Positions 1,095 to 41,846 of a stretch of DNA of 64,000 bases are shown here, in pieces. Source of the stretch: Candidatus Latescibacterota bacterium (GTDB taxonomy: Bacteria > Latescibacterota > UBA2968 > UBA8231); NCBI GenBank assembly GCA_965248355.1, contig OZ252098.1:5248001-5312000 (forward strand). Reading direction: 5' to 3'. The position numbers and the translations under genes are program-made. Numbering within the stretch: position 1 is the first letter of the stretch; each line of letters opens with the position of its first letter. The notes under the pieces were generated by a model. That model did no database searches, was not told where the DNA came from, and was given only the letters and a program-made list of their open reading frames with translations.

Positions 1095-2140
1095 GTGGAC
1101 CTCCGACCCGGCCTGTCCCGCCCCTCGTCCGAGCCGGAGTTTTTCTGTCCCTGACCGCCACCGCCACGGCGGCGCAGACGGAGTTCCCCTATGCCGCCGG
1201 CACCGACAGCACCGGCCGCGCGCAGGCGGTGAGCGATGCCGCCGGCCGGGTGCTGATCGAGTCGCCGGAGTTCCCCCGCGGCCTGTGGCTGGACCTGGCG
1301 GACGAGGCGGGACAGGCGGTGGCCGGCATGCAGGTTGAGTACCAGGGCCGGGCGGACAGCCTGATAGCCCTTCGCTGCGTCGATCCGTCCGGTTTGCTCC
1401 AGGAGACGCTGCTGTGGGCGCGCCCCGGAGGGGACCCCCTGCGCCTCGCGCTGAGGACCAGTGAGCCCGCAGACCTGCCGGCGGGACTGGCCGCCATCGA
1501 CTGGCGGGTCCAGCCGGGCGCTGAGATGCTGGTGCAGGAGGAAGGGCAGGAGCTCACGGGCTGGGAGGCGGTAACCGCCTTTCTGCAAGAGCGCTGGCGG
1601 GGCCGCACGGGGCGGGTGGCGGTACAGATCGACAGCAACACCGCACTGGCTCTTGACCTGGCGCACGCGGAGCCTGCCGCCCGGTTGGTCGACTACCTCC
1701 AAGACCAATACCGGAGATCACTGGGAGAAGTGAGCGGCTTTCTTGTAGGTACTCCTGAGTCCCTACGCACTGGGCGAAAACCTGGCTCTCCTCGAGGACT
1801 CGATTGCTCTCACCACGTCCTTCGTTCTGGTCCCGGGATCGGACTTGGAAAAGTGGGTATTGACGAGACTGCGCAGATCCAGGGGTCCGGTTACCTTGTC
1901 GGAAGCCTCTGCCTTGACAAGACTCGATCTCACATGGCATCAGATCGTGGACGTGAGCCCTCTGGTCTTTCTGACCAGCTTGGAGAGTCTGGGGCTGTCC
2001 GAAAACCGGATCGTCGATGTGAGTCCTCTGGCCTCCCTGACCCGCCTGAAATGGCTGCGCCTTGGCAACAACGAGATCGCAGAGTTGAGCCCTCTGGCTT
2101 CCTTGACCCGCCTGGAATGGCTGATCCTGAGGGAGAACCG
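1091..2140 (+). pseudogene. Second, paralogous secreted LRR protein; frameshifted at ~1748-1790 and truncated at ~2140
   Basis: GTGA overlap with the upstream stop and a signal-peptide-like N-terminus. The +1 frame encodes TTSFVLVPGSDLEKWVLTRLRRSRGPVTLSEASAL, which matches TTSFVLIPGSEFERWVLKGLRRSSGPVTWSEASAL of the first gene, followed by 3-4 LRRs. Confidence 0.75.
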
Positions 2141-4160: not shown

Positions 4161-4259
4161 GCGGCTGATGGGTATATTCTGAGATAGAGCGGCAGCGTCT
4201 GCCCCGATCCACGCGTGCCCACGTAGGCGGCCGCAGGCACCGCAACGAGGAGGCTTCCC

Positions 4260-5054
4260 ATGCCCACCCGATACATCGCATCTCTCCTCCTGCCGGCCCT
4301 GATCCTGGCCGGCTGCGACCGTTCCACGGACCCCGACGAAGGATACCTCGAGATACGGGAGGTGACCGTCGGCCCCGCCCTGGCCAAGTGCTACGGCGTG
4401 GGCCTGCAGTCCTGCATGGTGGTGGACGGCGGGTTCTTCTACGATGGCATCGAAGGCTTCGAGTACGAGCCCGGCTACGACTATCGCCTGCGCATCGGGA
4501 AATACGATCCCTGGGACGGGAAGGAGCCGCCCCAGGATGCCGGCCAGTACGCCTACCGCCTGCTGGAGCAACTGCAGAAGACCCCGGCACCATCCACCCC
4601 CGCGACCTTGTCCGTGGGCCCGGCGCGGGTGACATGCGCCGGCAGCGACGACTTCTGCATGGTGGTGGACGGCGTCCCGTACGACGACATGATCACCAGC
4701 TTCGAGTACGAAGCCGGCTACCACTACATCCTCGAGGTCAACAGGTATGCCGACGGCCGCTACCTGCTGAGTGAGATCACCTCGAGGAGCGAAGCGTCGG
4801 GTGCGGAGGAGGAGATCACAGTGGATGCCCACAGGGTCGAGTGCGGCGACGGCTATCCCGGGTACTGCAAGGTCGTCAACGGCGCCCCCTTCCGCGGCGA
4901 GATCGTGGGCTTCCACCCCTGGCACGACTACGGCTACCGTCTCCGCGTCGAGAGGTTCAGCATGTTCGTGGACGGCGCGGAAGCCTCGTCGGCCCATGTC
5001 CCGGCCCACGGCTACCGCTGGCTGGAGACCCTGGAGCGCACTCCCAGGGAGTGA
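4260..5054 (+). CDS. Lipoprotein with three DUF4377-like repeats
   Basis: RBS gaggagg and lipobox LAGC. Three repeats of the pattern VGP..C..C.VVDG..Y..I.GF.YE.GY.Y.L. Confidence 0.8.
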   Translation: MPTRYIASLLLPALILAGCDRSTDPDEGYLEIREVTVGPALAKCYGVGLQSCMVVDGGFFYDGIEGFEYEPGYDYRLRIGKYDPWDGKEPPQDAGQYAYRLLEQLQKTPAPSTPATLSVGPARVTCAGSDDFCMVVDGVPYDDMITSFEYEAGYHYILEVNRYADGRYLLSEITSRSEASGAEEEITVDAHRVECGDGYPGYCKVVNGAPFRGEIVGFHPWHDYGYRLRVERFSMFVDGAEASSAHVPAHGYRWLETLERTPRE

Positions 5055-24619: not shown

Positions 24620-25510
24620 ATGAGAATCGAGATACAGGGGCTGACCAAGCGCTACCGCGGCGGCTTCCACGCCCTGAGGGACGTGGACCTGGAGATCGGC
24701 AGCGGCATGTTCGGCCTCCTCGGGCCCAACGGCGCCGGCAAGACCACCCTCATCCGCATCCTCGTCACCCTGCTCAAGGCGACCTCCGGCCGCGTCCTGG
24801 TGGACGGCATGGACATCGACCGCCACCGGGGGCAGGTGCGGCGCCTGGTCAGCTACCTGCCCCAGGAGTTCAGCCGCTTTCCGCGGCTGGCGGCGTGGGA
24901 GGTCCTCGACTACCAGGCCTGCCTGCGGGGGCTGGGCCGCCGGGAGCGGGCCGAGCGCATAGACCGGCTCCTGGAGCTGGTGGGCCTCTTCGAGGTGCGC
25001 GACCGCCAGGCGGGCAAGCTCTCGGGCGGCATGAAGCGCCGTCTGGGCATCGCCCAGACCCTGATCGGCGATCCCTCGATCCTGGTGGTGGACGAGCCCA
25101 CGGTGGGGCTCGATCCCCAGGAGCGGCTGCGCTTCCGCAACCTGCTGGCCGACCTCGCCAAGGGGGACATCGTCATCCTCCTCTCCACCCACATCGTGGG
25201 GGACATCTCCTCCACCTGCACCGACATGGCGCTGTTGAACCGGGGCCGCGTCGCCTGGCGGGGCCCGCCGGCGGGACTGATCGAATCGGCCCGGGGCCGG
25301 GTGTGGAAGGTGGCGGCCACCCACGCCGAGCTGGACGGGCTGAAGGAGCGCTTCGCCGTCGTCTCCACGGTACCGTCGGTGGAGGGATACGAGGTCCGCC
25401 TGGTGGCCGACGAGCCGCCGGCGGCCTCGGCGGCGGCGGCGGCCCCCGGCCTGGAGGACGCCTACCTCCATCACCTGCAGTCCATCGAGCGCGACGGCCG
25501 GGGACCATGA
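24620..25510 (+). CDS. ABC transporter ATP-binding protein
   Basis: GPNGAGKT, LSGGM, VVDEPT, STH. Confidence 0.95.
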   Translation: MRIEIQGLTKRYRGGFHALRDVDLEIGSGMFGLLGPNGAGKTTLIRILVTLLKATSGRVLVDGMDIDRHRGQVRRLVSYLPQEFSRFPRLAAWEVLDYQACLRGLGRRERAERIDRLLELVGLFEVRDRQAGKLSGGMKRRLGIAQTLIGDPSILVVDEPTVGLDPQERLRFRNLLADLAKGDIVILLSTHIVGDISSTCTDMALLNRGRVAWRGPPAGLIESARGRVWKVAATHAELDGLKERFAVVSTVPSVEGYEVRLVADEPPAASAAAAAPGLEDAYLHHLQSIERDGRGP

Positions 25511-28500
25511 CCCTGTCCGGCCGATGGTGGACGGTGGCCCGCTACGAGTGCCGGCTGCTGTGGCGGTCCTGGGCCTTCCGCCTGTCGGCCCTGGCCGCGG
25601 TCGGGTTCCTGCTGCTCCTCCAGATCGTCTTCACCGCCCCTTTCAGCGGCGCCCCCTTCTCCTTCCGCTCCTTCTCCGGGGCCCTGCCCCTCACCGCCGT
25701 CCGCCTCCTCAACCTCTACCTCGGACTGGTGACGGCCCTGCTGGCCACCGAGTTCGTCAAGCGCGACCGCCAGCTCGACAGCTCCGAGGCGGTGCTCGCC
25801 AACTCCTTCACCAACCCCGGGTACGTGGCCGGCAAGATGCTGGGGATCGGCCTGGCCGTGGGCGGGCTGGTGGCGGCGGCCCTGGCGGTGGTGGCCGTGA
25901 ACCACCGGTTCTTCACCGACGCGCCCTTCGCCTGGCAGCCGTACCTGCTGCTGCCCCTGCTGGGCACCCTGCCGACCCTGGCCCTCACCAGCGGCCTGGC
26001 GTGCCTGCTGATCACCCTGCTGCGCAGCCAGGCGGTGGTGCTCATGCTGATGCTGGGCCTGTGGGCGGCGGCCGTCTTCGGGGGCCAGGGGCAGTTCCAG
26101 CTCTTCGACATCTTCGCGTTCTGGATCCCCATGGCCTGGTCGGACTTCGTCGGCTTCGGGAATGAGGAGCAGCTCGTGCGCGTGCGCGGCGCCCACCTGC
26201 TCGCGGGCCTGGGATGCATGGCGGCGGCGGCCCTGCTCATGGGCCGGCTGCGCCAGTCGCTGGCGGCCAACGCGGCGGCGGCGGTCCTGGCCGTGGCCTG
26301 CCTCGGGGGGGCCGTCTGGATGGGGCACACGTACCTGGAGGACCGCCTCGCCGGCCGCGAGCGCCGCGAGCACCTGGTCTCCCTGAGCCGCGCCGCGGCC
26401 ACGGCGCCGGCGGCCTCGGCCACCGCCTGCGAGATCGAGGTCGAGCACCGGGGCCGCGAGCTGGCCGTCACCGGCGTGGTCGACCTCCTCAACCCCCACG
26501 CCGAGCCCCTCGACTCGCTGCTGTTCACGCTCAATCCGGGGCTGCGGGTGGCGGCGGTCACCGTCGACGGTGTGGAGGTCCCCTTCCGGCGCGACGGCCA
26601 CCTGCTGCGGGTCGCCCCCGCCGCGCCCCTGGCTCCCGGCGACAGCGCCCGGGTGCGCATCGACTACCGCGGCGCCCCCGACGACGGCGCCGCCTACCTC
26701 GACGTGGACCGCGAGCGCTTGGAGGCCGGGTTCAGCTACTGGGTGATCGGCGTGCCCAAGGCCTACAGCTTCGTCACCCCCGGTTTCCTGCACCTGACGC
26801 CGGAGGCCGCCTGGTACCCCGTGAGCGGACTGCCGCCGGGGGCCGCCTTCCCGGCCGCCGGCCGGCGCGACTACCCCCGCTTCCGGCTGTCCGTGGAGGT
26901 GCCCCGCGGCTGGACGGCCTTCTCCCAGGGGCGGACCCAGGTGGACACCACCGAGGCCGGCCTGCGCTTCCGCTTCGAGAGCGGGCCCCTGCCGGGGATC
27001 TCGCTCACGGCGGGCGAGTACGAACGCCGGCAGGTCGAGGTGGACGGGGTCGCCTACAGCCTCGGCGTCCGGCCGGGGCACGCCTACTTCGACGCCCACC
27101 TGGATTCCCTCGGCGAGGCCCTGCCGGGGCTGATCCGGCGGCTGCGCGCCGACTACGAGGCGGCCCTGGGCCTCGAGTATCCGTACCCGCGCCTGTCGCT
27201 GGTGGAGGTGCCCCTGCAGGCCTGGTCCTACCGCCGGCTGTGGACCCTGGCCCAGGAGTCGGTGCAGCCGGAGATCGTCTTCCTGCCGGAGATGGGCACC
27301 CTCTGCGATGCCAGCGACTTCCGCCGGCTGAAACGGCGCTCGCGGCGCAGCCAGGAGCGGGCCAACCAGGCGGAGAGCGCCGAGGACCTGCAGTCCGGGT
27401 ACCTGCGCACCTTCTTCGAGGTCGACCTGATGGGCACGCGGTCCCTCGGGTGGTCGCCCCTGGGCAGCCCGGAGCTGCGAAGGCGTTACCACCTGCTGCC
27501 CAACTTCGTCTCCTTCGGCACCCACCTGTCGTCGCCCCGGTGGCCGGTGCTCAACGCCGCCTTCGAGACCTGGTTCGAGCTGGGTCTGGCGCCGGCGGGG
27601 AACCCCTGGTCCCGGCGATGGAGCGGGCTCACGGCAGCGGAGCGGGCCAACCTCACCCTGCAGGAGCACGGTCTGCGGGAGCTGCTGGCCTCCCCGGAAG
27701 AGGCCGGGGAGGAGGGCCTCGAGGCGGCGGTCCGGGCCAAGGCCCGGCAGCTGCTCCTGGGCTTCGCCGCCGCCGCCGGTCCCGAACGGTTCGACCGGGA
27801 GATGACCGCCTTCCTGCGGCGGCACCGCGGCCGGCCGGCGTCGGAGGCCGACCTGCTGGAGATGCTGGAAGGGCTCGGGGTGGAGGGGGTGGAGGCGCGG
27901 CTGGAGGCCTGGTTCGGCGGCACCGAGCTGCCCGGGTACGAGATCGAGGGCGCCGACGCCTGGCTGGTGCGCCAGGGGGAGCGGACGCGGACCCAGGTCG
28001 AGCTGACCATCTCCAACCCCACGGCGGTGGACGGCGTCGTCGAGGTGGGCCTCCGCTTCCGCGGGACCGAGCAGGAGGCCTGGTTCGACCGCGGCGCCGG
28101 CTCCGACCACCGGCGCATGGTGGCGTTGCCGGCGGCCTCGAGCAAGCGCGTCGGCCTCGTCGTCGACACCCCGGTGGCGGAGATGGTGGTCGACACCTAC
28201 GTCTCCCGGAACCTGCCGGCCCACATCCAGGTGCCCCTGCCGGAGGCCCGGCTGCGCCGCGGCGCCGAGCCCTTCGACGGCGAGCGCCTGGAGGCCCTGG
28301 CCGGGGACGGGGCGGAGGGCGAGTACGTCGTCGACAACGAGGACCCCGGCTTCGAGGTCATGGAGGCGGAGCGGCCCAACTGGCTGCGCCGGCAGATCGC
28401 CGACCTCTTCGACCTGGAGGCCGACGCCGTGCCGTACGTGGGCTTTCATTTCTGGAGCCCGCCGCGCACGTGGGAGGCGGCCACGGCCCCCGGGTTCTAC

Positions 28501-28863
28501 GGCCGCTTCGTGCTCTCCGGCTACTACAAGCGGGCCGGCGACGGCCGCAGCCGGGTCTCGTGGCGCACCGAGATCGGCGAGGCCGGCCGCTACGATCTCT
28601 TCTACTACCTGGGTTCCTTCGAGGAGCTGCGGTGGCGGGGACGGGGGCGGGGACAGGAGCTGAGCTTCCTCGTCTATCACGAGGACGGCGTCGAGTCGTC
28701 GAGCCTGGACATGGCCGGGGCCGAGGAAGGATGGAACCTGCTGGGAACCTATCCGCTGGCCGCCGGTCCGGCCCACGTGGAGCTGACCGACCGGGGACCG
28801 GAGCGCACCGTCGTGGCCGATGCCGTGAAGTGGGTGCGGCAGGACGCGCCCCGGCGCAACTGA
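25507..28863 (+). CDS. ABC-2-type permease fused to an M1-aminopeptidase-like periplasmic region and a C-terminal Golvesin/xanthan-lyase-like CBD
   Basis: About 7 N-terminal TMs; FTLNPGLRV, WYP, YPYPRLSLVEVP; C-terminal VDNEDPGF...GWNLLGTY...VVADAVKWV. No HExxH seen. Confidence 0.75.
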   Translation: MTLSGRWWTVARYECRLLWRSWAFRLSALAAVGFLLLLQIVFTAPFSGAPFSFRSFSGALPLTAVRLLNLYLGLVTALLATEFVKRDRQLDSSEAVLANSFTNPGYVAGKMLGIGLAVGGLVAAALAVVAVNHRFFTDAPFAWQPYLLLPLLGTLPTLALTSGLACLLITLLRSQAVVLMLMLGLWAAAVFGGQGQFQLFDIFAFWIPMAWSDFVGFGNEEQLVRVRGAHLLAGLGCMAAAALLMGRLRQSLAANAAAAVLAVACLGGAVWMGHTYLEDRLAGRERREHLVSLSRAAATAPAASATACEIEVEHRGRELAVTGVVDLLNPHAEPLDSLLFTLNPGLRVAAVTVDGVEVPFRRDGHLLRVAPAAPLAPGDSARVRIDYRGAPDDGAAYLDVDRERLEAGFSYWVIGVPKAYSFVTPGFLHLTPEAAWYPVSGLPPGAAFPAAGRRDYPRFRLSVEVPRGWTAFSQGRTQVDTTEAGLRFRFESGPLPGISLTAGEYERRQVEVDGVAYSLGVRPGHAYFDAHLDSLGEALPGLIRRLRADYEAALGLEYPYPRLSLVEVPLQAWSYRRLWTLAQESVQPEIVFLPEMGTLCDASDFRRLKRRSRRSQERANQAESAEDLQSGYLRTFFEVDLMGTRSLGWSPLGSPELRRRYHLLPNFVSFGTHLSSPRWPVLNAAFETWFELGLAPAGNPWSRRWSGLTAAERANLTLQEHGLRELLASPEEAGEEGLEAAVRAKARQLLLGFAAAAGPERFDREMTAFLRRHRGRPASEADLLEMLEGLGVEGVEARLEAWFGGTELPGYEIEGADAWLVRQGERTRTQVELTISNPTAVDGVVEVGLRFRGTEQEAWFDRGAGSDHRRMVALPAASSKRVGLVVDTPVAEMVVDTYVSRNLPAHIQVPLPEARLRRGAEPFDGERLEALAGDGAEGEYVVDNEDPGFEVMEAERPNWLRRQIADLFDLEADAVPYVGFHFWSPPRTWEAATAPGFYGRFVLSGYYKRAGDGRSRVSWRTEIGEAGRYDLFYYLGSFEELRWRGRGRGQELSFLVYHEDGVESSSLDMAGAEEGWNLLGTYPLAAGPAHVELTDRGPERTVVADAVKWVRQDAPRRN

Positions 28864-28873
28864 AGGAGACCGC

Positions 28874-30331
28874 ATGAGGGGGGGGAGATTGATGCTGCCG
28901 CTGGTCCTGTGGGCCGCGGCGCCGGCGCCGGGCGAGGTGCTGCGGCTCGAGGACGCGCTGCGCATCGCCGGCGACCGCAGTCCGATCCTGGCCGAGGCGC
29001 GCCACGGCCTCGAGACCAGCCGCCACGAGCTGGAGGCGCAGCGGGCGGGGCTCAAGTCGAGGCTCGGCCTCACGGTGACGCCCTTCGAGCACAGCCGCGA
29101 CCGGACCTTCAACGAGCTGGTCTCCGGGTACAACACCCAGGAGCAGACCCACGCCGGGGCCCGGTTCACCATCCAGCAGACCATCGAGCCCACCGACGGC
29201 ACCCTCAGCCTGGTGCAGGCCTTCGACTGGCGCGACGCCTCCAGCTCCTTCGCCGGGGCCGGCTCGCGGCGCTCGTACAGCAATGCCCTGTTCCTGCGCT
29301 ACAGCCAGCCGCTGTTCACCTACAACCGGACCCGCCTGGAGCTCAAGCGCCTGGAGCTGGGCCTGGAGAACGCCCTCCTCGGCTTCGCCGTCCAGGAGCT
29401 GCAGATCGAGAGCCGGGTGACGCGCCAGTTCCTCAACCTCTACTACCTGCAGCGCAACCTGGCCATCGCCGTGGAGGAGATGCGCAACGCCGAGGAGAGC
29501 CTGGAGATCGTCGGCGCCAAGGTGGAGGCCGGCATCACCGCCCGCGAGGAGCTGCTCCAGGCGGGCCTGACCCGGGCCAACAGCCGCGCCGCTGTCGAGA
29601 ACGCGCGGCTCCAGTACGAGGACGGCCTGGACGACTTCAAGATCCTCCTGGGCCTGCCCCTGGACATGGAGCTGAAGGTCGAGGCCGATGTCCGCAAGCG
29701 CCTCGTGGAGGTCGATGCCCGGCTGGCCGAGCGCCACGGGCTGGACCACCGCATGGAGATCCGCCAGCGCCAGATCGAGGTGGACAACGCCCTCGACGAG
29801 TTGATCCAGACCGGGGCGCAGAACGAGTTCAAGGGCTCCGTGGACCTGACCTACGGCCTCACCGGCACCGACCCCGCCCTGGCCTATCTCTACGACTCGC
29901 CCACGCGCAACCAGGAGGTCGGCATCCGTTTCGAGGTGCCGATCTTCGACTGGGGCGAGAACGAGCACCGCCTGGCCGCGGCCCGCGAGCGGGTGGGCAG
30001 CCGCAAGCTGTCGGCGGCCGAGGAGGAGCGGCGCATCCTCAAGGAGATCCGCCAGGGCTGCCGCGGCCTGGGCAACCAGGCGGCGCAGATCGAGATCGCC
30101 GAGAAGAGCGTCGAGAGCGCCCGCCAGACCTACCGCCTCAACCTGGAGCGCTACCGCAACGGCGACCTGCCGTCGAAGGACATCGCCTTCTACCAGACCC
30201 AGCTGTCGCGGGAGCAGCTCAACGAGGTGCGGGCCCTGATCGACTACCGGCTGGCCCTGCTCGATCTGAAGGTGCGCACCTTGTGGGACTTCGCCGCCGG
30301 CGAGCCCGTCATCAACCTCGAACCACGCTAG
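28874..30331 (+). CDS. TolC-family outer membrane efflux protein
   Basis: LRLEDALRIA, YSQPLF, EVPIFDWG, ERYRNG. Confidence 0.9.
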   Translation: MRGGRLMLPLVLWAAAPAPGEVLRLEDALRIAGDRSPILAEARHGLETSRHELEAQRAGLKSRLGLTVTPFEHSRDRTFNELVSGYNTQEQTHAGARFTIQQTIEPTDGTLSLVQAFDWRDASSSFAGAGSRRSYSNALFLRYSQPLFTYNRTRLELKRLELGLENALLGFAVQELQIESRVTRQFLNLYYLQRNLAIAVEEMRNAEESLEIVGAKVEAGITAREELLQAGLTRANSRAAVENARLQYEDGLDDFKILLGLPLDMELKVEADVRKRLVEVDARLAERHGLDHRMEIRQRQIEVDNALDELIQTGAQNEFKGSVDLTYGLTGTDPALAYLYDSPTRNQEVGIRFEVPIFDWGENEHRLAAARERVGSRKLSAAEEERRILKEIRQGCRGLGNQAAQIEIAEKSVESARQTYRLNLERYRNGDLPSKDIAFYQTQLSREQLNEVRALIDYRLALLDLKVRTLWDFAAGEPVINLEPR

Positions 30332-30339
30332 GAGGCGAC

Positions 30340-31407
30340 ATGCTGCGACATCGGATCCGCCGGCTCGCGGGACTCGCCGCCGGCGCCGGTCTGCTCGGCG
30401 GCGGCTGCGACCAGGAAGGACCGAGGATCGACGTGGAGTCGGCGATCCCGGTTCGGGTACAGCCGGTGGCCCGGGGGCCGATCGCCGAGTACGTGGCCGC
30501 CACCGGCACCGTGGAGGCGGCGCGGGAGGGCCTGCTGGCCTGCGAGCAGGCCGGCCGCTACCGGCTGCAGGACAACCCGCGCACCGGCGCCGCCTGGGCC
30601 ATGGGCGACCGGGTGGAGGCCGGCGACCTCATCGTGCGCCTCGACAACGCCGAGTTCGAGAACCAGGTGAGCATCGAGTCGAAGGTCCTGCAGCAAGCCT
30701 CGGCCCAGCGCGAGCACGACAAGCAGAAGGCCCTCTTCGAGCATGGCGGCATCACCCTGCGCGAGTTGACCGACGCCGAGCGCCAGGCCATCGACGCGCG
30801 CTACGACCTGGAGAACGCGCGCCTGCAGCTGGCCAAGCTCGAGGTGCGCGCCCCCTGCGCCGGGATCCTGGTCGACCTGGAGCACCACAACCCGGGGCAG
30901 CGGCTGCAGGCCGGGGACGCCCTCGGCAAGGTCATGGAGTACGCCGAGCTCTACGCCGAGACCTCCCTGCCGGGCAAGGAGATGGGCCGAGTCGCGCCGG
31001 GCCAGGAGGCGCTGGTGACCCACTACGGCGCCGCCGGGGACACCCTGCGAGGCCGGGTGACCCAGGTCTCGCCCGTGCTAGACGCCGACAGCCGCACCTT
31101 CAAGGCGGCCCTGACCATCGACAACCCCGGGCTGCGCCTGCGGCCGGGCATGTTCGTCAAGATCGAGCTGGTGGCGGCCTCCCGCGACTCGGCCCTGGTG
31201 ATCCCCCGGGACGTGATCGTCGACCGCGGCCACGAGAAGGTCGTCTTCGTCGTGGAGAAGGGGATCGCCGTGCGCCGCCGCCTGGAGACCGGTCTGGGGA
31301 ACCGCCACGAGGTCGAGGTGCTGAGCGGGCTCATGGACGGGGAGCGCCTGGTGGTGGAGGGCTTCGAGACCCTGCGCGACCACTCGCGGGTGAAGACCAC
31401 CAACTGA
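30340..31407 (+). CDS. RND periplasmic adaptor (membrane fusion) lipoprotein
   Basis: GGGC lipobox, VRAPCAG, LRPGMF, VEVLSGL. Confidence 0.92.
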   Translation: MLRHRIRRLAGLAAGAGLLGGGCDQEGPRIDVESAIPVRVQPVARGPIAEYVAATGTVEAAREGLLACEQAGRYRLQDNPRTGAAWAMGDRVEAGDLIVRLDNAEFENQVSIESKVLQQASAQREHDKQKALFEHGGITLRELTDAERQAIDARYDLENARLQLAKLEVRAPCAGILVDLEHHNPGQRLQAGDALGKVMEYAELYAETSLPGKEMGRVAPGQEALVTHYGAAGDTLRGRVTQVSPVLDADSRTFKAALTIDNPGLRLRPGMFVKIELVAASRDSALVIPRDVIVDRGHEKVVFVVEKGIAVRRRLETGLGNRHEVEVLSGLMDGERLVVEGFETLRDHSRVKTTN

Positions 31408-34400: not shown

Positions 34401-34517
34401 GCCGTCATCGGCGGCCTGTTCAGCTCCACGGCCCTCACCCTGGTCGTGGTCCCCTGCGTCTACCACCTCCTGGCCCGCATCGACCGGCTCCGTCCGGCGC
34501 AGGCCCCGGCGCCGTGA
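31407..34517 (+). CDS. RND efflux permease (AcrB/CzcA superfamily)
   Basis: GMLVDNAIVVVEN, AAQFES, RLRPILMTSLTT. Confidence 0.95.
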   Translation: MESLARFSVSRPATVLMLVLAVLLLGGLSFGRLGVELLPDLANPRLFVEVEAGDLPPAEVEARIAAPVEAAASLTRGVVDVASVSRTGGAQVTVEYGWHVDMDEAFLDLQKGMAEFARRPDVGEISVSRHDPNGRPVVVAAFRHPEVEDLDALRRTAESIVRSELVRLPGVAAVEVVGARRREVEVLTDAYTLEAYGLTLEQLAAAIRSANRNMSGGSIVEMGRRYLIRGVGEFSSAADLEALVVAQVSGPAAGPQGAGPQAQEAPEPKPVFLRDLAEVRQVLSEPRSIVRLDGRRCLGLEIYKEARFNTLDAARAVHDQLESLRRSLPGYEIEVIQDQSRFIAAAVSEVEETGLIGVLLAVVVLFVFLRRVGVTAVISLAIPISVVATFNLMYFGELSLNLMTLGGLALGAGMLVDNAIVVVENVFRHLEQGESPSRAAIRGAGEVGGAITSATLTTIVVFLPIVYLQGAAGELFREQAWTVAFSLLSSLFVALLVIPMLCSRLLGDGGGAPPAGRVPFPRYGALLTALLRRRVAVALTAAALVAATAAVLSRLGSEFMPHLDPGQLSLRLTLPEGTTLARTEGAVGNVEASIAQSLGPELGHLYSRVGRTAGAGGGESLAGENHAVIHVQLRPGSPVSPAALAQALGEAPAGPDAQVRYLLRETALETSLGRSDAPVVVEIHGRALGVLAGLAGQVEERLAAVEGLTGVESSLGPGRPEIEIVVDRAAAAVFGLSSDAVGSQLEGLLSGQEAGRLRQRGEAADIVIRRPRVTPAELRGLLLEAPGGRRVRLDEVARLRDTVTPREILRRNQQRVVTVSARLDGEEPFDRVAGRVDEALRQVDRPPEYGFVLTGEEKLRRDSFDNLRFALVLAVVLVYMVMAAQFESLVHPFVILLTIPLAGVGAVALLLALGMPLNVMSFIGVILLAGIAVNDSIVLVDRINRNRRAGQDLEAAIVHAGRTRLRPILMTSLTTMLALLPLAAGAGEGAMLRAPMAVAVIGGLFSSTALTLVVVPCVYHLLARIDRLRPAQAPAP

Positions 34518-37500
34518 CCGGCGCCCTGGTCCGGCGGCCCGTGGCGGTGACCATGCTGCTGGCCGCCGGCTGCCTGCTGGGGGCCGTCTCCTACGGGCGT
34601 CTGCCCGTGGAGCTGATCCCCTTCGCCGAGCTGCCCATGCTCGTGGTGCAGGTGCAGGGGGGGCGCGACTCGGAGCCGGAGCAGGTCGAGAGCCGGGCCG
34701 TCATCCCCCTCGAAGGGGCGATCGCGGGACTGCCCGGGATCGAGCGGATCGAGTCCTACGTCGAGTCGCGGGGGGCCCGGATCCTGGTCTACTACAGCAG
34801 CCGCGTCGACCCCGGGCACGCCTACCTGCGCCTGGAGCAGCGGGTGACGGCGGCGGCGGCCGGCCTCGACGAGGAGATCGGCGTGCGGGTGCTCAAGGTC
34901 GACACGGAGCAGCTGTCGACGCAGTTCATGTCCCTCGAGGCGCGCGGCGAGGGCGGCCTCGACCGGATCCGGCACGTGGTCGACCGCAAGGTGGTGGAGG
35001 AGCTGAGGCACGTGGACGGCGTCGCCAACGTCTCCGTGTACGGGGGCCGGCGGCGCTCGATCGAGGTGCGCCTCGACGAGGAGGTCCTGGCCGGCCACGG
35101 ACTCACGGTGGCGCAGGTGGGGGCCCAGGTCGCCCAGGGCTCCCGTCGCCGGCGTCATCTCGGCGAGGTGGCCGACGGCGGCGGACGGCTCTTCGTCAGC
35201 CTGGTCTCCGACTACACCTCCATGGCCGACCTCGAGGAGACCGTCCTGCGGGACGGGTTGCGCCTGGGGCACGTGGCGTCGGTGGTCGACGGGGGGGCGG
35301 AGCGCCAGACCATCGCCCGCGTGAACGGCCAGGAAGCGGTGGCCCTGTCCCTGATGCGCGACCCCGAGGCCAACCTGCTGGAGCTGTCGGAGGCCGCCGC
35401 GGCCGTGGTGGAGGACCTGAACCGGCAGCTGGCCCCGGAGGGCGTGGAGCTGGTGGTCCGCAGCGACGCCGCCGAGCCGGTGCGCGAGAACATCGGGGAC
35501 ATCCAGTCCCTGGCCCTGCTCGGCGGGGGGCTGGCGGTGGCCGTGCTCTGGGTCTTCCTGCGCAACCTGGTCCTGGTGGCCGTGGTGGCCCTGTCGATCC
35601 CGGTGTCGGTGCTGATCTCCCTGAACCTGTTCCACGCCCTGGACCTCACCCTCAACTCCCTGTCCCTGGTGGGCATGGCCGTGGCCGTGGGCATGCTCAT
35701 CGACAACAGCATCGTCGTCCTGGAGAGCATCTACCGGCGGCTGGCCCGGGGCGAGGCGCCGGACGAGGCCGTGACCGGGGGCGTGGCCGACGTGCGCCGC
35801 GCCGTGGTGGCGGCGACCCTGACCACGGTCTGCGTCTTCCTGCCCTTCGTCTTCGCCGAGGGCTACCTGATCCGCCTCCTGGGGCGCGAGGTGGGCGTGG
35901 CCATCATCTCGACGCTGCTCGTCTCCCTGGCCGTGGCCCTGCTGCTGATCCCCGTGGTCACCTGGCGCCTCGCGGTGCGCCGGTCCGGGGCAGGGCTCGC
36001 CTTCAACGCCGTCTCCCAGCGCCAGCGGGCGGTGCAGGTCTACTCGCTGCTGCTCAAGTCGTGCCTGCGCTTCCCGGCGCGCACCGTCATCGCCGCCGTG
36101 GCCGGCTTCTTCCTCACCGTGGCCGTCTGCCTGGCCCTCAGCATCGACCGCTCGCGCCCGGTGGAGCTGGACCGCTTCGACGTGTACGCGGGGCTGCCGG
36201 GCGGGGCCACCCTCGAGCTGGCCGACGAGCTGGCCCTGGCCATGGACGCGCGCCTGGCGAGGGTGGAGGAGCTGGAGGAGCGCCGCATCGCCGTGCGGCC
36301 CGATCTCCTGCACCTCGACCTGGGTCTGCGCGAGGACTTCCGGGAGATCGCCGGCCGCGGCGTGGGCGAGGTGCGGGAGGAGGTGCGCCAGGAGCTGAGG
36401 GAGGCCTTTCCGGCCCTGTGGTTCACCTTCGACGCGCCCCGGGGCGGCGCCGGGTTTCGCGGCGGCGGCGGTGGAGGAGGGGGCGGCATGGGCGGGGCCT
36501 TCGGCCGGCTGCTGGGGATCGGGGAGAGCGGCGATCGCCTCCTCCTCCGGGGCCGGGACATGGGGCTCCTGCGCCGGGTGGCCGACGACCTGCGCTACAA
36601 CCTCGAGCGCCTGACGGCGGTCCAGTACGCCAGGGTGGCCGAGGCCGAGCGCCAGCCGGAGATCTCCCTGTTCCTCGACCGGGCCGCCCTCAAGCACCAC
36701 GGCGTCACCGAGGAGGCCGTCTCCGGGGAGCTGGCCAGCTTCCAGCCGCAGGTGTCGTCGCCGGCGCGGGTGCGGCGGGGCGCGGAGGAGCTGGAGGTCC
36801 TGCTGCGCAGCGGTGAGCCGGGGGACCGCCGCATCGAGGACCTGCGGCGGGTGCAGGTGCCGGCCGAGGGGGGAGGATCGGTGCCCCTGCCGCGGCTGGC
36901 GGACCTCGTGTACACCAGCGGCAGCGGGCGCATCGCGCGCGTCAATCAGGAGAAGGAGCTGGCGGTCAGCTACCGGTTCCAGAGCGAGGTGAGCAGCTCG
37001 GCGGGACTGCTGGCCGAGGGGCGGTCCGCCGTCGACCAGCTGGTCTCGGACCTGTCCCCGCCGTCGGGGGTGTCGGTCGAGGTCGTCCGCGACGAGACCG
37101 ACCTGGAGCCCTTCTACTTCCTCCTCGCCGCCTCGGTGGTGCTCATCTACATGATCCTGGCCGCGGTCTTCGAGTCCCTCGTGGCGCCCCTGGCGATGAT
37201 GATCACCCTGCCCCTGGCCACGGTGGGGGGGCTCTGGGCGCTGGTCCTCACGGGCCACTCCATCCTCGACACCAACGCCCTCGTGGGCTTCGTGATCCTC
37301 CTGGGGGTGGTGGTCAACAACGGCATCATGCTCATCGACTCGGCCCGCGCCCGGCAGCGCCGCGGGGCGCGTCTCTCCCGGGCCCTGCTGCAGGCCGGCC
37401 AGGGCCGCCTGCGGCCGATCGCGATCACCGCCCTGAGCACGATCCTGGCGCTGCTGCCCCTGGCCATGGGCAAGGCCGAGTACGTGGCCGTCATCGGCGT

Positions 37501-39199
37501 GCCCTTCGCCGTGGCCGTCATCGGCGGCCTGCTGGCGGGGACCCTCTTCACCCTGGTCCTGGTGCCCACGGTCTACGCCGGCCTGGAGCACACCCTGGCC
37601 TGGCTGCGCGGCCTCGGCGGCTGGACCCGGGCGGCGCAGCTGGCGGCGCTGGCCCTGGGGGCCTGGCTGATCCAGGAGCAGGTGGACGGCCTCCTGTGGC
37701 GGGTCGTCGACGGCACGGTGCTGCTGGGCGGGGTCCCGGCCCTGACCTGGTTCCTGCAGACCAGCCTGCGGCGCAGCCGCGCCGACCCGATCCCCCGCGA
37801 CCGGCCCCTGCGCATCTCGGTGGCCAACCTGGTGAAGGTCTACGACGACGAGCCGCGGTTCCTGCGCCAGTGGCGCCGGGGGGAGCGGCAGCGGGCGCGC
37901 CTGCGCGCGGCGGGGGAGGCGGAGGCGGTGGGCCGCCTGGGGGCCCTGCGCTGGCAGCTGCCGCTGCTCGGCTTCCACTTCTACTTCGCCTACCTCTACC
38001 TGGAGAGCGACTTCTGGGCGATGGTGTTCTCGGTGGCCTTTGTCCTCTTCCTGGCCGGCGCCGTGCGCCCCTTCCTGCCGCCGCCGCAGGGCCGCCGGCG
38101 ACGCCTCGTCCGCGGGCTCTGGTCGACCCTGTTCTGGCTGCTGCCCCTGCCCCACCTGCTCTGGTACCAGGACCGCTGGGACAACTGGGCGCTCACCGTC
38201 CTCGTGGGCATCCTCTGGTACCTCGGGGCCGTGGTGCACCGCGGTGCCCGCCGGCTCTACCGCGGCCAGGTCAACGTCGACGGTCTGGCCGGACGCTTCC
38301 GGCGCAGCCGCCGCCTGCTCTACCGGCTCGTGGCCTGGCTGCCGCTCATCGGCCGCCGCCGCCGGCCCTTCCCGGCCCTGAAGCAGGCCTCCCTCGAGAT
38401 CGAGAGCGGCATGTTCGGACTCATCGGGCCCAACGGCGCCGGCAAGACCACGCTCATGCGCGTCCTCTGCGGCATCCTGGAGCCGACGCGGGGCAAGGTG
38501 CGGGTCAACGGCATCGACCTGTCGGCCCGGCGCGAGGAGCTGCAGGCCCTGATCGGCTACCTGCCCCAGGCCTTCGGCACCTACGAGAACCTGACGGCGT
38601 ACCGGTTCCTCGACTACCAGGCGATGCTGAAGGGCCGGTGGGACGCCGGAGAGCGGCGCCGGGCCGTGGAAGAGGCGATCCGCGCCGTGCACCTGGAGGA
38701 CAGCCGCGATCGCAGGATCGGGGGGTTCTCGGGGGGGATGAAGCAGCGGGTGGGGATCGCCCAGACCCTGCTGCACCTGCCCCGCATCCTGGTGGTCGAC
38801 GAGCCGACGGCGGGCCTCGACCCGAGGGAGCGCATCCGCTTCCGCAACCTGCTCGCCGAGCTGGCCCGCGACCGGGTGGTGGTGTTCTCGACCCACATCA
38901 TCGAGGACATCTCCAGCTCCTGCAACCGGCTGGCCGTGCTCGGCGATGGCGAGGTCCGGTTCCTCGGGACCCCCCGGGAGATGGTGGAGCTGACCCGCGG
39001 GGCCGTGTGGCAGGCGTCGGTCCCCGAGGCCGGCTTCGAGGCCCTGCGCCGGACGGCGCGGATCGTGCACCACATGCGCGACCAGGACCGCATCCGCGTG
39101 CGCCTGCTCGCCGCCGAGCGGCCCCTGCCCGGGGCCGCCGAGGTCACGCCGACCCTGGAGGACTCCTACCTGTGGCTGCTGGAGGGCCGCGAGAGGTGA
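34514..39199 (+). CDS. RND permease - ABC ATPase fusion protein (~1561 aa)
   Basis: RND motifs GMLIDNSIVVLE, AAVFES, RLRPIAIT; extra TMs; then GPNGAGKT, FSGGM, DEPTAGLD, STH. One uninterrupted frame. Confidence 0.9.
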   Translation: MTGALVRRPVAVTMLLAAGCLLGAVSYGRLPVELIPFAELPMLVVQVQGGRDSEPEQVESRAVIPLEGAIAGLPGIERIESYVESRGARILVYYSSRVDPGHAYLRLEQRVTAAAAGLDEEIGVRVLKVDTEQLSTQFMSLEARGEGGLDRIRHVVDRKVVEELRHVDGVANVSVYGGRRRSIEVRLDEEVLAGHGLTVAQVGAQVAQGSRRRRHLGEVADGGGRLFVSLVSDYTSMADLEETVLRDGLRLGHVASVVDGGAERQTIARVNGQEAVALSLMRDPEANLLELSEAAAAVVEDLNRQLAPEGVELVVRSDAAEPVRENIGDIQSLALLGGGLAVAVLWVFLRNLVLVAVVALSIPVSVLISLNLFHALDLTLNSLSLVGMAVAVGMLIDNSIVVLESIYRRLARGEAPDEAVTGGVADVRRAVVAATLTTVCVFLPFVFAEGYLIRLLGREVGVAIISTLLVSLAVALLLIPVVTWRLAVRRSGAGLAFNAVSQRQRAVQVYSLLLKSCLRFPARTVIAAVAGFFLTVAVCLALSIDRSRPVELDRFDVYAGLPGGATLELADELALAMDARLARVEELEERRIAVRPDLLHLDLGLREDFREIAGRGVGEVREEVRQELREAFPALWFTFDAPRGGAGFRGGGGGGGGGMGGAFGRLLGIGESGDRLLLRGRDMGLLRRVADDLRYNLERLTAVQYARVAEAERQPEISLFLDRAALKHHGVTEEAVSGELASFQPQVSSPARVRRGAEELEVLLRSGEPGDRRIEDLRRVQVPAEGGGSVPLPRLADLVYTSGSGRIARVNQEKELAVSYRFQSEVSSSAGLLAEGRSAVDQLVSDLSPPSGVSVEVVRDETDLEPFYFLLAASVVLIYMILAAVFESLVAPLAMMITLPLATVGGLWALVLTGHSILDTNALVGFVILLGVVVNNGIMLIDSARARQRRGARLSRALLQAGQGRLRPIAITALSTILALLPLAMGKAEYVAVIGVPFAVAVIGGLLAGTLFTLVLVPTVYAGLEHTLAWLRGLGGWTRAAQLAALALGAWLIQEQVDGLLWRVVDGTVLLGGVPALTWFLQTSLRRSRADPIPRDRPLRISVANLVKVYDDEPRFLRQWRRGERQRARLRAAGEAEAVGRLGALRWQLPLLGFHFYFAYLYLESDFWAMVFSVAFVLFLAGAVRPFLPPPQGRRRRLVRGLWSTLFWLLPLPHLLWYQDRWDNWALTVLVGILWYLGAVVHRGARRLYRGQVNVDGLAGRFRRSRRLLYRLVAWLPLIGRRRRPFPALKQASLEIESGMFGLIGPNGAGKTTLMRVLCGILEPTRGKVRVNGIDLSARREELQALIGYLPQAFGTYENLTAYRFLDYQAMLKGRWDAGERRRAVEEAIRAVHLEDSRDRRIGGFSGGMKQRVGIAQTLLHLPRILVVDEPTAGLDPRERIRFRNLLAELARDRVVVFSTHIIEDISSSCNRLAVLGDGEVRFLGTPREMVELTRGAVWQASVPEAGFEALRRTARIVHHMRDQDRIRVRLLAAERPLPGAAEVTPTLEDSYLWLLEGRER

Positions 39200-39900
39200 A
39201 GGGGCCTCTCGGCAGCGCCCCCGCCTTCCTGCGCTACAGCGCCGGGCAGGTCTTCGCCGGCCGGTTCCCCTGGTTCCTGCTGCTGGCCGTGGCCCTGTTC
39301 CTCACCATCGCCGTCATATACACGGCCTCCGAGAAGGTGCCGCCGGGCCCCGATCTCATCTACTACTTCCTGCTGGCGCCCGGGGTGGTGCTGGTGATCT
39401 ACCCCTCGGCCTACGCCGTGCAGAGCGAGGTCGACGCCGGCATGGTGGAAACCCTCTTCGGGATCCCGGACTACCGCTACAAGGTGTGGCTGGCGCGGCA
39501 CGCCGTGCAGCTGCTGACCGCGGCCGTCCTGCTGGCCGGGCTGGCCTCGTTCTGCCGCCTCGCCCTCACCGACTTCGCCGTCCACGAGATGGTCTTCCAC
39601 CTCATGTTCCCGGTGGCCTTCCTCTCCAGCGCCGGCTTCCTGCTGGCCACCCTCACGCGCGGCGGCAACGGCGCCCTGGCCGTGCTCGTGCTGGTCGTGC
39701 TCGCTCTGTGGATCGCCGCCGAGCCCCTCGAGGGCAGCCGCTGGAACCCGTTCTACAACCCCTTCGCGCTGCTCGACGAGGTGGAGGGCCTGGTGCGCTC
39801 GGGGACCACCTTCCACAACCGCGCCTACCTGCTCTCCGGGTCGGTCCTGGCCGTCCTCGGAGGCCTGCTGCGCCTGCAGCACCGCGAGCGCTTCGTCTGA
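39196..39900 (+). CDS. ABC-2-type permease
   Basis: GTGA overlap; about 6 TMs; SEVDAGMVETLFGIP coupling-helix-like segment. Confidence 0.8.
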   Translation: MKGPLGSAPAFLRYSAGQVFAGRFPWFLLLAVALFLTIAVIYTASEKVPPGPDLIYYFLLAPGVVLVIYPSAYAVQSEVDAGMVETLFGIPDYRYKVWLARHAVQLLTAAVLLAGLASFCRLALTDFAVHEMVFHLMFPVAFLSSAGFLLATLTRGGNGALAVLVLVVLALWIAAEPLEGSRWNPFYNPFALLDEVEGLVRSGTTFHNRAYLLSGSVLAVLGGLLRLQHRERFV

Positions 39901-39913
39901 CCCGGCTCCGCGG

Positions 39914-40750
39914 TCAGACGGCCATGTCGGCGCGGATGGCGGGGTGGCTCCGGTAGCCTTCCAGCTCGAAGTCGTCGAAGACGAAGTCGTCGATCTCGCC
40001 CTGGCCGCGGTCGCGGAGCCGCAGGCGCGGCAGCGGCAGGGGCTCGCGGCGGAGCTGCTCGCGCACGGCGTCGAGGTGGTTCAGGTAGATGTGGCAGTCG
40101 CCGAGGGTGTGGATGAACTCGTGGGCCACGAAGCCGGTGACGCGGGCCACCATGTGCAGCAGCAGGGAGTAGGAGGCGATGTTGAGGGGCACGCCGAGGA
40201 ACATGTCGCAGGAGCGCTGGTACATCTGCAGGGAGAGGCGGTCCCCGGCGGTGTAGAACTGGAAGAAGTTGTGGCACGGCGGCAGGGCCACGTCGGCGGG
40301 ACCGGTCTCGGCGGCGTTCCAGGCGTCCACCATGATCCGCCTCGAGCCGGGGTCCGTGCGCAGCAGGTCGACGGCCTCCTGCAGCTGGTCCACGGTGCGG
40401 TCCGCCCCCCGCCAGCGGCGCCACTGCACCCCGTAGATGCGGCCCATGGCGCCGTCGTTCTCCTCCACGCCGAGGCGGGAGAGGTAGTCGCGGTAGTTGG
40501 CGTCCCAGAGCTTGTTGTGGGGGTAGATCGCCTTGAGGTCGTGGATGTTGTCGGACCCCGAGACGAACCACAGCAGCTCCGACAGCATCGACTTCCACAC
40601 CAGCCTCTTGGTGGTGACCGCGGGGAAGCCGTCGGCCATGGCGTAGCGCGCCTGCATGCCGAAGAGGGAGAGGGTGCCCACGCCGGTGCGGTCAGCCTTC
40701 TCCACGCCGTGGTCGAGGATGCGCTGCAGCTGGTCGAGGCAGGTCTGCAT
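39914..40750 (-). CDS. thyA: Thymidylate synthase
   Basis: DRTGVGT, ELLWF, IYGVQWR, LPPCH, YQRSCDMFLGVPLNIASY. Confidence 0.97.
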   Translation of the reverse strand: MQTCLDQLQRILDHGVEKADRTGVGTLSLFGMQARYAMADGFPAVTTKRLVWKSMLSELLWFVSGSDNIHDLKAIYPHNKLWDANYRDYLSRLGVEENDGAMGRIYGVQWRRWRGADRTVDQLQEAVDLLRTDPGSRRIMVDAWNAAETGPADVALPPCHNFFQFYTAGDRLSLQMYQRSCDMFLGVPLNIASYSLLLHMVARVTGFVAHEFIHTLGDCHIYLNHLDAVREQLRREPLPLPRLRLRDRGQGEIDDFVFDDFELEGYRSHPAIRADMAV

Positions 40751-40911
40751 CAGGGATCCTGGCGGCGCAACTCGGCGCCCGGTTGCGTGTTTCGCCGTGC
40801 GATCCGCTCGAGCTGCGGTTGGATGGCCGACATGACCGCGGCGAAGACGACCGCCACCTGCACGGACCGCCAGATCACGTCGGCTGCCGCGGACAGCCGC
40901 GTGGGGCTCGG

Positions 40912-41112
40912 CTATTGGGCATGGTCCGCAATCATCGCTCGTACCACGGGTGCCAGCTCTCTGGGGACCGCGATTGCTGCCTGAGCAGAGTCCTCGAATG
41001 CGGCCTCGTCTTCTGCAACTGCCTCGTCTTCGCTCAGCGACTCGTAGTGCCGGAGTACGCGCTGGACACGTTCCTCGTTCCATCCAGGCGGGAACTTGGT
41101 GGCATTCTTCAT
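40912..41112 (-). CDS. Small hypothetical protein (antitoxin-like)
   Basis: 66 aa, FPPGWNEERVQRVLRHYE...VPRELAPVVRAMIA; resembles small TA-associated proteins. Confidence 0.6.
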   Translation of the reverse strand: MKNATKFPPGWNEERVQRVLRHYESLSEDEAVAEDEAAFEDSAQAAIAVPRELAPVVRAMIADHAQ

Positions 41113-41162
41113 CGGCTGTGCTCATCGTGAGTCGTCGGGGGTCGGAACATGGAAGTGCCGGA

Positions 41163-41846
41163 TCAATGTATTCTGCGTTCAAGAACGATTCTCAAACCTA
41201 TGAAATCCGCTTCGACGCGTACGTTGAAGCGCTTCGAGAGGCGATTCCTCACTCCAAGCCCAATGCGGTAGAACTCCGGACCGGAATTGTTGTCATCGCG
41301 GGCACTGAGCCTCCAGCCGGGACCCAGGCCCAAGAGTAGATAGGTCCTGGGAATGGCCGTATAGAAGTGGGCATTGACAACTATTCCAATCCACCGGTAG
41401 TGTCCACCCGCTCCTGCAGCAACACTCCCCTCTATTGAATTCAGATAGCTTCGATACCGGAGAGAGATCCCCGCACCTTCCAAACGTCTCTCGATGGGCA
41501 GTTCCTGCGGCCGGCCTTCCAGGGCCAGGAATGTACCCGCTGACAAGCCCACATACACGCGCTCCTTGGCCGGTCGCCTGACGCTATGGATCCATCGGTA
41601 GGGGATGTCAAGGACGCCCAGTCTCCGCACATCCAACCTGACCGAATCCTCATCCCCACTGAGAACGATACCTCTTCTGGTTCTGACGATCCCTGCCCTG
41701 TCCTGATAGGTGATCCACACCTGGTCGCGCTCTTCGAACAGGTTCTGCCCGATCCCGCTCTCGCGGGTGGCTGCGACCTCCGTCAGGGGCGCCGCACATC
41801 CAGCAGCAAGAAGCGCCGCGGCGGTGAGAGACCGGAGCTGGTTCAC
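41163..41846 (-). CDS. Hypothetical lipoprotein with outer-membrane beta-strand-like C-terminus
   Basis: GTGA overlap; lipobox AAGC; visibly lower GC. Confidence 0.6.

Follow-up and report, generated by a model that had tools for sequence, protein, structure and literature searches.

The 64,000-nucleotide window considered here, positions 5,248,001 to 5,312,000 of contig OZ252098.1 from a Candidatus Latescibacterota bacterium (assembly GCA_965248355.1), contains an operon with genes for an outer membrane factor (OMF), a membrane fusion protein (MFP), a permease of the resistance-nodulation-division (RND) type, termed RND1, a second RND permease (RND2) whose reading frame continues into an ATP-binding cassette (ABC) ATPase, and a small membrane protein of 234 amino acids (aa) (Table 1). 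The fused gene is the subject of this account. Its GTG start overlaps the stop codon of RND1 in the sequence GTGA, and the GTG start of the 234-aa gene overlaps the stop codon of the fused gene in the same way. The single polypeptide would carry, in order, an RND permease, a hairpin of two helices, the first strand (β1) of a nucleotide-binding domain (NBD) with its A-loop tyrosine, an insert with four helices, the remainder of an NBD of DrrA/GldA type and a C-terminal domain. An earlier note on this DNA had outlined the interrupted ATPase, and the coordinates it gave for β1 and the insert, together with the peptides it quoted, are exact. It overlooked the RND permease at the N-terminus and the putative membrane partner encoded by the next gene.

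Table 1. The fused RND2 gene with its parts, its operon, and the free paralogous ATPase (nucleotide positions are those of the window; TM, transmembrane helix; AF2, AlphaFold2; tail, residues 1030-1561 of the fused protein)
Feature	Positions	Strand	Match or mark
Outer membrane factor (TolC-like, OEP)	28874..30331	+	Pfam OEP, E 1.8e-35
Membrane fusion protein (HlyD/CusB type periplasmic adaptor)	30328..31407	+	Pfam HlyD_D23, E 4.9e-22; HlyD_3, E 4.2e-17
RND1, ordinary AcrB-like RND permease, 1036 aa	31407..34517	+	Pfam ACR_tran, E 1.4e-220, full length
Fused gene, RND2::split NBD, 1561 aa	34514..39199	+	Pfam ACR_tran, E 3.4e-151; ABC_tran, E 2.4e-29
RND permease domain of the fused protein, residues 1 to ~1029 (12 TM and periplasmic domains)	34514..37600	+	
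TM13-TM14 hairpin, residues ~1040-1082, between RND TM12 and β1	37631..37759	+	AF2 helices, tail 7-27 and 31-60
NBD strand β1 with A-loop Tyr, residues 1099-1110 (K1108, Y1110)	37808..37843	+	K-x-Y end
Insert of 175 aa, residues 1111-1285	37844..38368	+	Arg-rich amphipathic helix, four putative membrane helices, Arg-rich return segment
Insert helices (putative membrane helices)	~37940-37999, 38009-38074, 38093-38179, 38186-38260	+	
Rest of NBD (β2, Walker A, Q-loop, signature FSGGM, Walker B and Glu, H-loop) and C-terminal domain	38369..39196	+	
Six-helix membrane protein, 234 aa, putative ABC-2 (type V) permease partner	39196..39900	+	
Free paralogous ABC ATPase, 296 aa, outside the fused system	24620..25510	+	uninterrupted β1-β2 hairpin

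That an NBD is divided by the insert is very probable. The segment just before the insert has the textbook form of strand β1, and the sequence of β2 and Walker A resumes at residue 1286 (nucleotide 38369). In the closest paralogue within the genome, a free ATPase with 48% identity over the NBD, three residues connect β1 and β2, against 175 in the fused copy, and the A-loop aromatic residue of the fused protein is ~195 residues ahead of Walker A, where the usual distance is ~25. The Pfam ABC_tran match extends over residues 1289-1433 (103 bits; cut-off 25). On the free paralogue the NCBIfam GldA and DrrA models begin at profile positions 1-2, whereas on the fused protein they begin at positions 17 and 6 (residues 1288 and 1286), so that the contiguous NBD after the insert is one without its first strand.

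An alignment of 55 sequences was made from the tail of the window protein and 54 homologues, 11 of them from the loci of 19 relatives (near-duplicates omitted) and 43 from 46 usable named loci (three truncated ones omitted). The Lys and Tyr of β1 are invariant in all 55. Identity of the insert to that of the window is 24-37% in most rows, and in the most distant group of homologues β1 is at least as canonical as in the window, if not more so. The motif GPNGAGKT, the Q-loop Gln, SGG, the Walker B Asp-Glu and the H-loop His are likewise invariant, and from its sequence the fused NBD looks like a working ATPase. The earlier note had proposed an alignment of homologues as a check, and none of the homologues examined, which represent at least four named groups of phylum rank, lacks the β1 motif or the insert.

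A position-specific scoring matrix (PSSM) made from the β1 11-mers of 28 free relatives was scanned over whole fused proteins. The site before the insert ranks first of ~1550 positions in the window protein and is the top site in 27 of the 41 full-length homologues, each also of ~1550 positions. This bears on the possibility that the segment before the insert is merely β1-like, with the NBD working without a first strand and the six helices serving as a linker or anchor. In its favour, another site scores higher in the remaining 14 of the 41 homologues, and the score of the window protein is within the range given by shuffled sequences; it is the family, not the single window sequence, that carries the statistical weight. 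However, Lys and Tyr are retained throughout the alignment and across phyla, while the neighbouring insert drops to ~25% identity, the NBD profiles miss exactly their first 5-16 positions after the insert, and the structural model described next has a strand at this place. A merely β1-like segment has a low probability.

AF2 was run on the tail with an alignment of 20 rows. The segment before the insert is modelled as a strand at tail residues 71-81, with a predicted local distance difference test score (pLDDT) of 87 for the 10-residue block, and β2 is at tail residues 257-268. The place of β1 was derived from alignment ranges and aligned lengths. When the model is superposed on solved NBDs with VIA-align, the first residues of these meet model residues 68-71 with nearly full coverage, and the modelled strand aligns with their residues 1-13. 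For LptB (4p31_B), model residues 70..528 match chain residues 2..231 (Z 26.5, root-mean-square deviation (rmsd) 2.1 Å, 225 of 230 residues), and for MJ0796 (1l2t_A) model residues 71..459 match chain residues 1..230, with 218 of 230 residues aligned. The fold, RecA-like with a helical subdomain, gives Z scores of 25-28 with TM_1403, TM0544, LptB, MlaF, MalK and MJ0796 (rmsd 2.0-3.6 Å over 218-264 residues). The model thus suggests that the strand encoded ahead of the insert returns to join the NBD sheet. The claim of an insertion within the NBD right after the A-loop, for which the earlier note had asked that AlphaFold be consulted, is sustained by the homologue alignment, by the modelled strand and by the superposition, in which the solved NBDs align from their residue 1 or 2.

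A variant is a domain swap in trans, in which β1 would complete the NBD of an adjacent protomer and the insert would link fused subunits into a fixed oligomer. The connection of ~175 residues is long enough for this, NBDs pair in any case, and an AF2 model of a monomer is blind to the difference between cis and trans. No specific pointer to a swap was found, though, and the sheet of the monomer model is complete in cis, with the high local score just given for β1; a swap has only a slender chance. With closure in cis preferred, the folding back of β1 would make the NBD a normal ATPase, with six additional helices anchoring it at the membrane and tying it to the RND subunit.

The insert has four hydrophobic, aromatic-rich helices between Arg-rich stretches. 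The AF2 helices here are at tail residues 86-103, 114-133, 137-158, 165-193 and 196-220. Kyte-Doolittle hydropathy and counts of Lys plus Arg were averaged across the 55 rows. In the mean hydropathy six hydrophobic cores stand out as conserved, two of them in the stretch from RND TM12 to β1 and four within the insert, and these match AF2 helices of 20-29 residues. Positive charge is distributed unequally: the segments predicted to be cytoplasmic have on average 8.9 Lys plus Arg per sequence (after β1), 3.1 (the loop between helices 2 and 3) and 10.9 (the return to β2), the two outer loops predicted for the insert have 0.5 (loop a-b) and 1.1 (loop c-d), and the TM13-14 loop has 0.7. The pattern fits the positive-inside rule for four membrane spans with β1 and both ends of the insert in the cytoplasm, which is supportive, not proof, and an insert that interrupts a cytoplasmic domain with an even number of spans must have both ends in the cytoplasm. 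The insert would, on this indirect evidence, be embedded in the membrane. The earlier note further saw in it a possible route by which ATP binding may be coupled to membrane components. It has no relative in Pfam, NCBIfam or the ESM Atlas (the best Atlas score, 0.76, is below the level of a lead).

A search with the insert matched 25 of 41 related genomes (its own included), in open frames of ~1570-1590 aa, and in each of the 20 loci that were fetched the frame is unbroken from the RND part up to and including Walker A. In the phylum, an insert profile matched 81 of 153 genomes with completeness of at least 80%, among them 34 of the 52 high-quality ones. There is one match per matching genome, with the exception of one genome in which the match is in two pieces. 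A pattern scan of genome contigs gave at least 600 stretches, from which 80 named loci were kept. While 29 of these match in the NBD alone and are ordinary free ATPases, 51 match the whole tail; the records of the latter include Gemmatimonadaceae, Bacteroidales, Parabacteroides, Bacteroides, Odoribacter, Prolixibacter, Draconibacterium, Marivirga, Cytophagales, Calditrichaceae and Latescibacterota. The fused gene was located by a regular expression for Walker A in 46 of the 51, and the other five were dropped. Its frame exceeds 1500 aa in 40 of the 46, and in the remainder it is cut by contig ends or broken. An adjacent RND open reading frame (ORF) is upstream of the fused gene in 37 of 40 full-length homologue loci, in addition to the window, and the order OMF, MFP, RND1 and fused RND2 is found also in Parabacteroides and Marivirga, where matches to OEP, HlyD and ACR_tran are upstream. 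[In the Marivirga tractuosa record (1732-4903) RND1 takes the form of two ORFs (485 and 558 aa) that correspond to ACR_tran positions ~251-453 and 471-1019; a genuine split, a frameshift or a sequencing error could account for this, and fused RND2 there is intact.]

This distribution leaves next to no room for the idea that the long frame is an artefact in which read-through, a frameshift or an assembly error joins an RND gene to an ABC gene. DNA of high GC content does yield long spurious frames, of which there are many in the window. However, the fused frame is free of stop codons in those 81 genomes of the phylum and in Bacteroidota of low GC content, and the source annotations already have one protein with both domains. 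Read-through and frameshifting are rejected because the fused frame is conserved. The earlier note had taken the arrangement to be evolved and not an accidental read-through, and the presence of the same frame of ~1550-1600 aa in relatives across phyla bears this out.

An exhaustive HMMER scan of 1.84 billion representative proteins (E <= 0.001) found the insert in only 138. Twenty of them have lengths of 1550-1590 aa and a match that begins at residues 1088-1116, and the others are shorter, mostly small pieces. The source annotations are generic, such as 'AcrB / ABC-type multidrug transport system ATPase subunit', 'efflux RND transporter permease subunit' and 'ATP-binding cassette domain-containing protein'. 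The family is real, narrow in sequence space and widespread in FCB-type phyla. As far as seen, the insert-bearing NBD is always fused to an RND permease. A word-based search for shorter proteins with a split NBD gave five matches, all compatible with fragments. Among six insert proteins of intermediate length, four begin inside the RND domain and two (526 and 501 aa) in or after TM13; the latter pair could be fragments or true stand-alone, unfused forms.

The RND part of the fused protein matches ACR_tran over residues 5 to ~1020 (505 bits; cut-off 28), and its hydrophobic segments are at the places expected for a permease of 12 TM and two large loops in the periplasm. [A Gly-rich stretch of low complexity, with about nine Gly in a row, is encoded at 36400-36450 (+), in the periplasmic part (residues ~630-650).] Its TM10-12 region has MdtB as its best solved relative, with MexB and AcrB also among the best. 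Neither paralogue scores as an HAE1-type RND permease with the NCBIfam models RND_permease_1 and _2, RND2 reaching 442 bits and RND1 609 bits where the cut-off is 1250.

The canonical proton relay consists of an Asp pair and a Lys, which we take to be D407 and D408 of TM4 and K940 of TM10 in AcrB numbering. RND2 of the window lacks this relay: facing the Asp-Asp and Lys columns of MdtF and MdtB it has D-N in TM4 and N-N in TM10, though the first Asp of TM4 and the Arg of TM11 are kept. Across the RND2 sequences, TM4 has 'DN' in 34 of 41 and TM10 has 'NN' in 40 of 41. In RND1 of the window the residues are 'DN' in TM4 and 'ND' in TM10, at the places of D407/D408 and K940/N941, and across the RND1 sequences TM4 has 'DN' in 34 of 38, and TM10 'NN' in 19 and 'ND' in 14 of the 38. 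The altered relay is therefore common to RND1, which carries no NBD, and is a trait of the RND subfamily, not of the fusion. Judged by their sequences, RND1 and RND2 (38-41 homologues, from several phyla) constitute a distinct RND subfamily whose coupling chemistry may be unlike that of AcrB. A non-canonical relay is by itself no proof that the fused subunit is independent of protons. The notion of RND2 as a dead pump, energised by ATP after loss of the K940 equivalent, is weakened by the occurrence of the same substitutions in RND1 at about half of the loci.

A homologue of the 234-aa protein follows the fused gene in 42 of the 46 loci (33 by a strict motif filter and nine more by inspection), and in the other four the contig ends first. 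Neighbours of the protein in the ESM Atlas are in clusters automatically named 'ABC-2 type transport system permease'. Its AF2 model (pLDDT 86.6; predicted template modelling score, pTM, 0.85) shows six long helices preceded by a short one at the N-terminus, and the top rows of a Foldseek search with the model are nearly all transmembrane domains (TMDs) of type V ABC transporters: CcmB, PmtCD, ABCG2, NosY, ABCA1 and KpsM.

Complex prediction for the tail with this protein, in three runs with three controls and with input alignments made within this analysis, gave an interface score (ipSAE) of 0.69 (runs 0.67-0.70; best control 0.00), a confidence value of the model that indicates likeness, not binding. 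That level was attained by 116 of 157 solved complexes and by 2 of 215 mismatched pairs. The runs share at least 87% of contacts, with a pLDDT of at least 76 for the partner. The predicted interface is between tail residues 287-352 of the NBD, comprising the Q-loop and helical subdomain, and residues 3-22 (the N-terminal helix) and 81-97 of the partner. The second of these segments holds the invariant residues E85, G89, I90, P91, Y93 and K96 and is predicted to be the coupling helix between TM2 and TM3. [The permease ends in a conserved R-E-K/R-F-hydrophobic tail, in which R230 and E231 are invariant. In the complex model the confident interface takes in both this tail (residues 230-234) and the A-loop Tyr of the split NBD, a hint that the permease C-terminus may reach the strand at the ATP site.]

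The explanation that we consider probable for the whole is a hybrid pump with the composition OMF-MFP-RND1-RND2::NBD-permease. The six-helix protein, akin to ABC-2 (type V) permeases and encoded by a translationally coupled gene, would be the conventional partner of the NBD, its TM2-TM3 coupling helix lying in the Q-loop groove. An ATP-driven ABC-2 module would thereby be physically tied to a proton-driven RND pump within a tripartite efflux system. Two fused subunits would supply the NBD dimer, and two copies of the permease would complete a type V exporter. The ABC module could carry substrate from the cytoplasm or the inner leaflet to the periplasmic side, where the attached RND/MFP/OMF assembly would capture it, in the manner of other RND pumps, and take it across the outer membrane. 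NBD dimerisation, the stoichiometry and the passing of substrate from one module to the other are what we infer from the components. The hand-over mechanism is the more tentative part, with chances somewhat short of even.

Several points weigh against this explanation. RND pumps are trimers and ABC engines are dimers; this mismatch means that hand-over would need a special stoichiometry. MdtB2C is an RND heterotrimer, and a 1:2 heterotrimer of the two RND paralogues, by analogy with it, would solve the problem. The 234-aa protein has no match in Pfam (E <= 1, any ABC2_membrane model) or NCBIfam, and its profile found no solved relative among Protein Data Bank sequences (the best, at E 2.1, is a designed protein). 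Its Foldseek matches are weak, the best with E 0.015 and none with E <= 0.001, at TM-scores of 0.5-0.66. Since the predicted contact is the textbook one between NBD and TMD, the result for the complex may owe something to a memory of solved complexes of this kind, and its alignments came from within this analysis. That prediction lists no confident contacts of the insert with the partner and is consequently silent on whether the insert touches the permease. The AF2 model of the tail is of middling quality (mean pLDDT 74.6; pTM 0.54), with blocks of the insert at pLDDT 46-76, and AF2 may place a β1-like segment by learned pattern. The PSSM score for the window alone, 5.8, is within the shuffled maxima (4.1 +/- 2.6). 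Embedding of the insert in the membrane is argued from Kyte-Doolittle hydropathy and charge counts, and two of its four helices are weakly hydrophobic in the window sequence.

In place of a separate transport stage, the ABC module might regulate or drive the RND pump through the six tether helices, by gating it, by affecting its assembly or by energising it. The covalent joining of the NBD to the RND transmembrane domain, with an insert right after the ATP-sensing A-loop, is in keeping with such a role, as is the state of the relay, where both paralogues keep only the D407 equivalent while those of D408 and K940 are replaced. However, an ABC-2-like permease with an invariant coupling helix always follows and is predicted to dock in textbook manner, and the conserved permease and its predicted docking argue for a working ABC transporter. 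The relay changes are, moreover, common to the NBD-less RND1, and the TM4 Asp and the TM11 Arg are retained. A purely regulatory or motor function seems unlikely. In a further elaboration, an RND heterotrimer with two fused subunits would have exactly two NBDs, and these would clamp a dimer of the small permease next to the RND transmembrane domains. The insert, connected directly to the A-loop strand, would pass nucleotide occupancy on into the membrane, so that extraction from the cytoplasm or inner leaflet by ATP and expulsion through the MFP/OMF duct by protons are mechanically synchronised. Such a dual-energy supercomplex is rather unlikely; in its extreme form ATP, not protons, would drive an RND pump without the canonical Asp-Lys relay.

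A covalent fusion of RND and ABC components that recurs in roughly half of the genomes sampled from the phylum, and in many Bacteroidota with gut genera among them, would provide a test case for direct hand-over, for the matching of trimer with dimer and for control of an RND pump by ATP. Proton-driven RND pumps and ATP-driven ABC pumps are treated as separate classes of efflux system, and where inner-membrane transporters cooperate with RND pumps, the link is regarded as one of function and not of physical contact. An ATPase of soluble, Rossmann-like fold that takes up four membrane helices in its first hairpin would also be unusual for folding and membrane insertion: the sheet could close on the β1 strand only once the four helices are inserted.

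Two neighbours of the operon deserve mention. The free paralogous ATPase and an overlapping 1118-aa gene (25507-28863, +) make up a second ABC-2 system directly upstream of the OMF gene. The 1118-aa product begins with a multi-helix membrane domain that resembles those of ABC-2 systems (ABC2_membrane_2, E 0.0019, short of the cut-off); this is followed by an extensive extracytoplasmic region that belongs to no family and, at the C-terminus, by a Golvesin_C domain (E 5e-11). A 213-aa ORF at 25524..26165, considered as the permease of the free ATPase, is a wrong-frame artefact, the real gene being 25507..28863. On the other side, a thymidylate synthase gene (39914-41182, -; Pfam Thymidylat_synt, E 1e-97) converges on the end of the operon; ~148 residues precede its domain, probably due to an over-long start call in high-GC DNA.

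The component families, namely RND, the DrrA-type NBD, a type V-like permease, MFP and OMF, are known, and public databases already list the proteins, generically named. In the open-access literature neither an RND-ABC fusion nor an NBD with membrane helices in its interior was found described, and the passages on RND transporters in a census of Bacteroides transporters mention no such fusion (PMC6281302).

A division of an NBD at the same place occurs in CFTR. There W401 is the A-loop residue, and the regulatory insertion (RI) of NBD1 is between the first two strands. The RI comprises residues 405-436 (PMC3776845). Like the insert described here, it comes after the first strand and A-loop aromatic residue and before the second strand. 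Unlike it, the RI is of ~32 residues, soluble, disordered and regulated by phosphorylation, whereas the window insert has 175 residues, four predicted membrane helices and conserved motifs, and is in a bacterial NBD of ABC-2 type. The two cases mark the β1-β2 turn as generally permissive, and possibly regulatory, in ABC NBDs. Rad50, SMC and UvrA show that the ABC ATPase fold can accommodate insertions hundreds of residues long and still reassemble. What is inserted in these proteins, which are not transporters, is a soluble coiled coil or a DNA-binding module, and it is at another position of the fold.

The tripartite pumps AcrAB-TolC and MdtABC-TolC likewise have OMF, MFP and RND components, encoded in one operon in the window, and MdtBC resembles the present system in having two adjacent RND paralogues. 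The differences are that RND2 bears an ABC ATPase, that equivalents of D408 and K940 are absent and that NCBIfam scores are far below the cut-off. MacAB-TolC provides a precedent for an ABC ATPase that works with an MFP and an OMF in the Gram-negative envelope. MacB, however, has an NBD, a four-helix type VII TMD and a large periplasmic domain, and there is no RND component, whereas in the window system the periplasmic machinery is an RND permease and the putative ABC permease a small six-helix protein. The order RND - 2 TM - β1 - 4 TM - NBD is not that of a MacB-type (type VII) protein, and MacB NBDs match the window NBD merely as generic NBDs.

The nearest relatives of the ABC part are ATPases of DrrA, GldA and NodI type that serve type V permeases, as in CcmAB, NosFY, PmtCD and ABCG2, with which it has in common the NBD profiles and the predicted interface of coupling helix and Q-loop; the model of the putative permease resembles type V TMDs, with the weak matches given above. 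DrrA-type systems have the gene order of NBD, then permease, with overlapping stop and start codons, as here. A difference is that the putative permease of the window matches no Pfam or NCBIfam ABC-2 model. Known DrrA-type NBDs are either free soluble subunits or joined end-to-end to their own TMD, and we know of no DrrA-type system with membrane helices inside the NBD fold or with an N-terminal RND permease. The NBD encoded in the window differs in both respects, being split within its fold and having an RND permease at its N-terminus.

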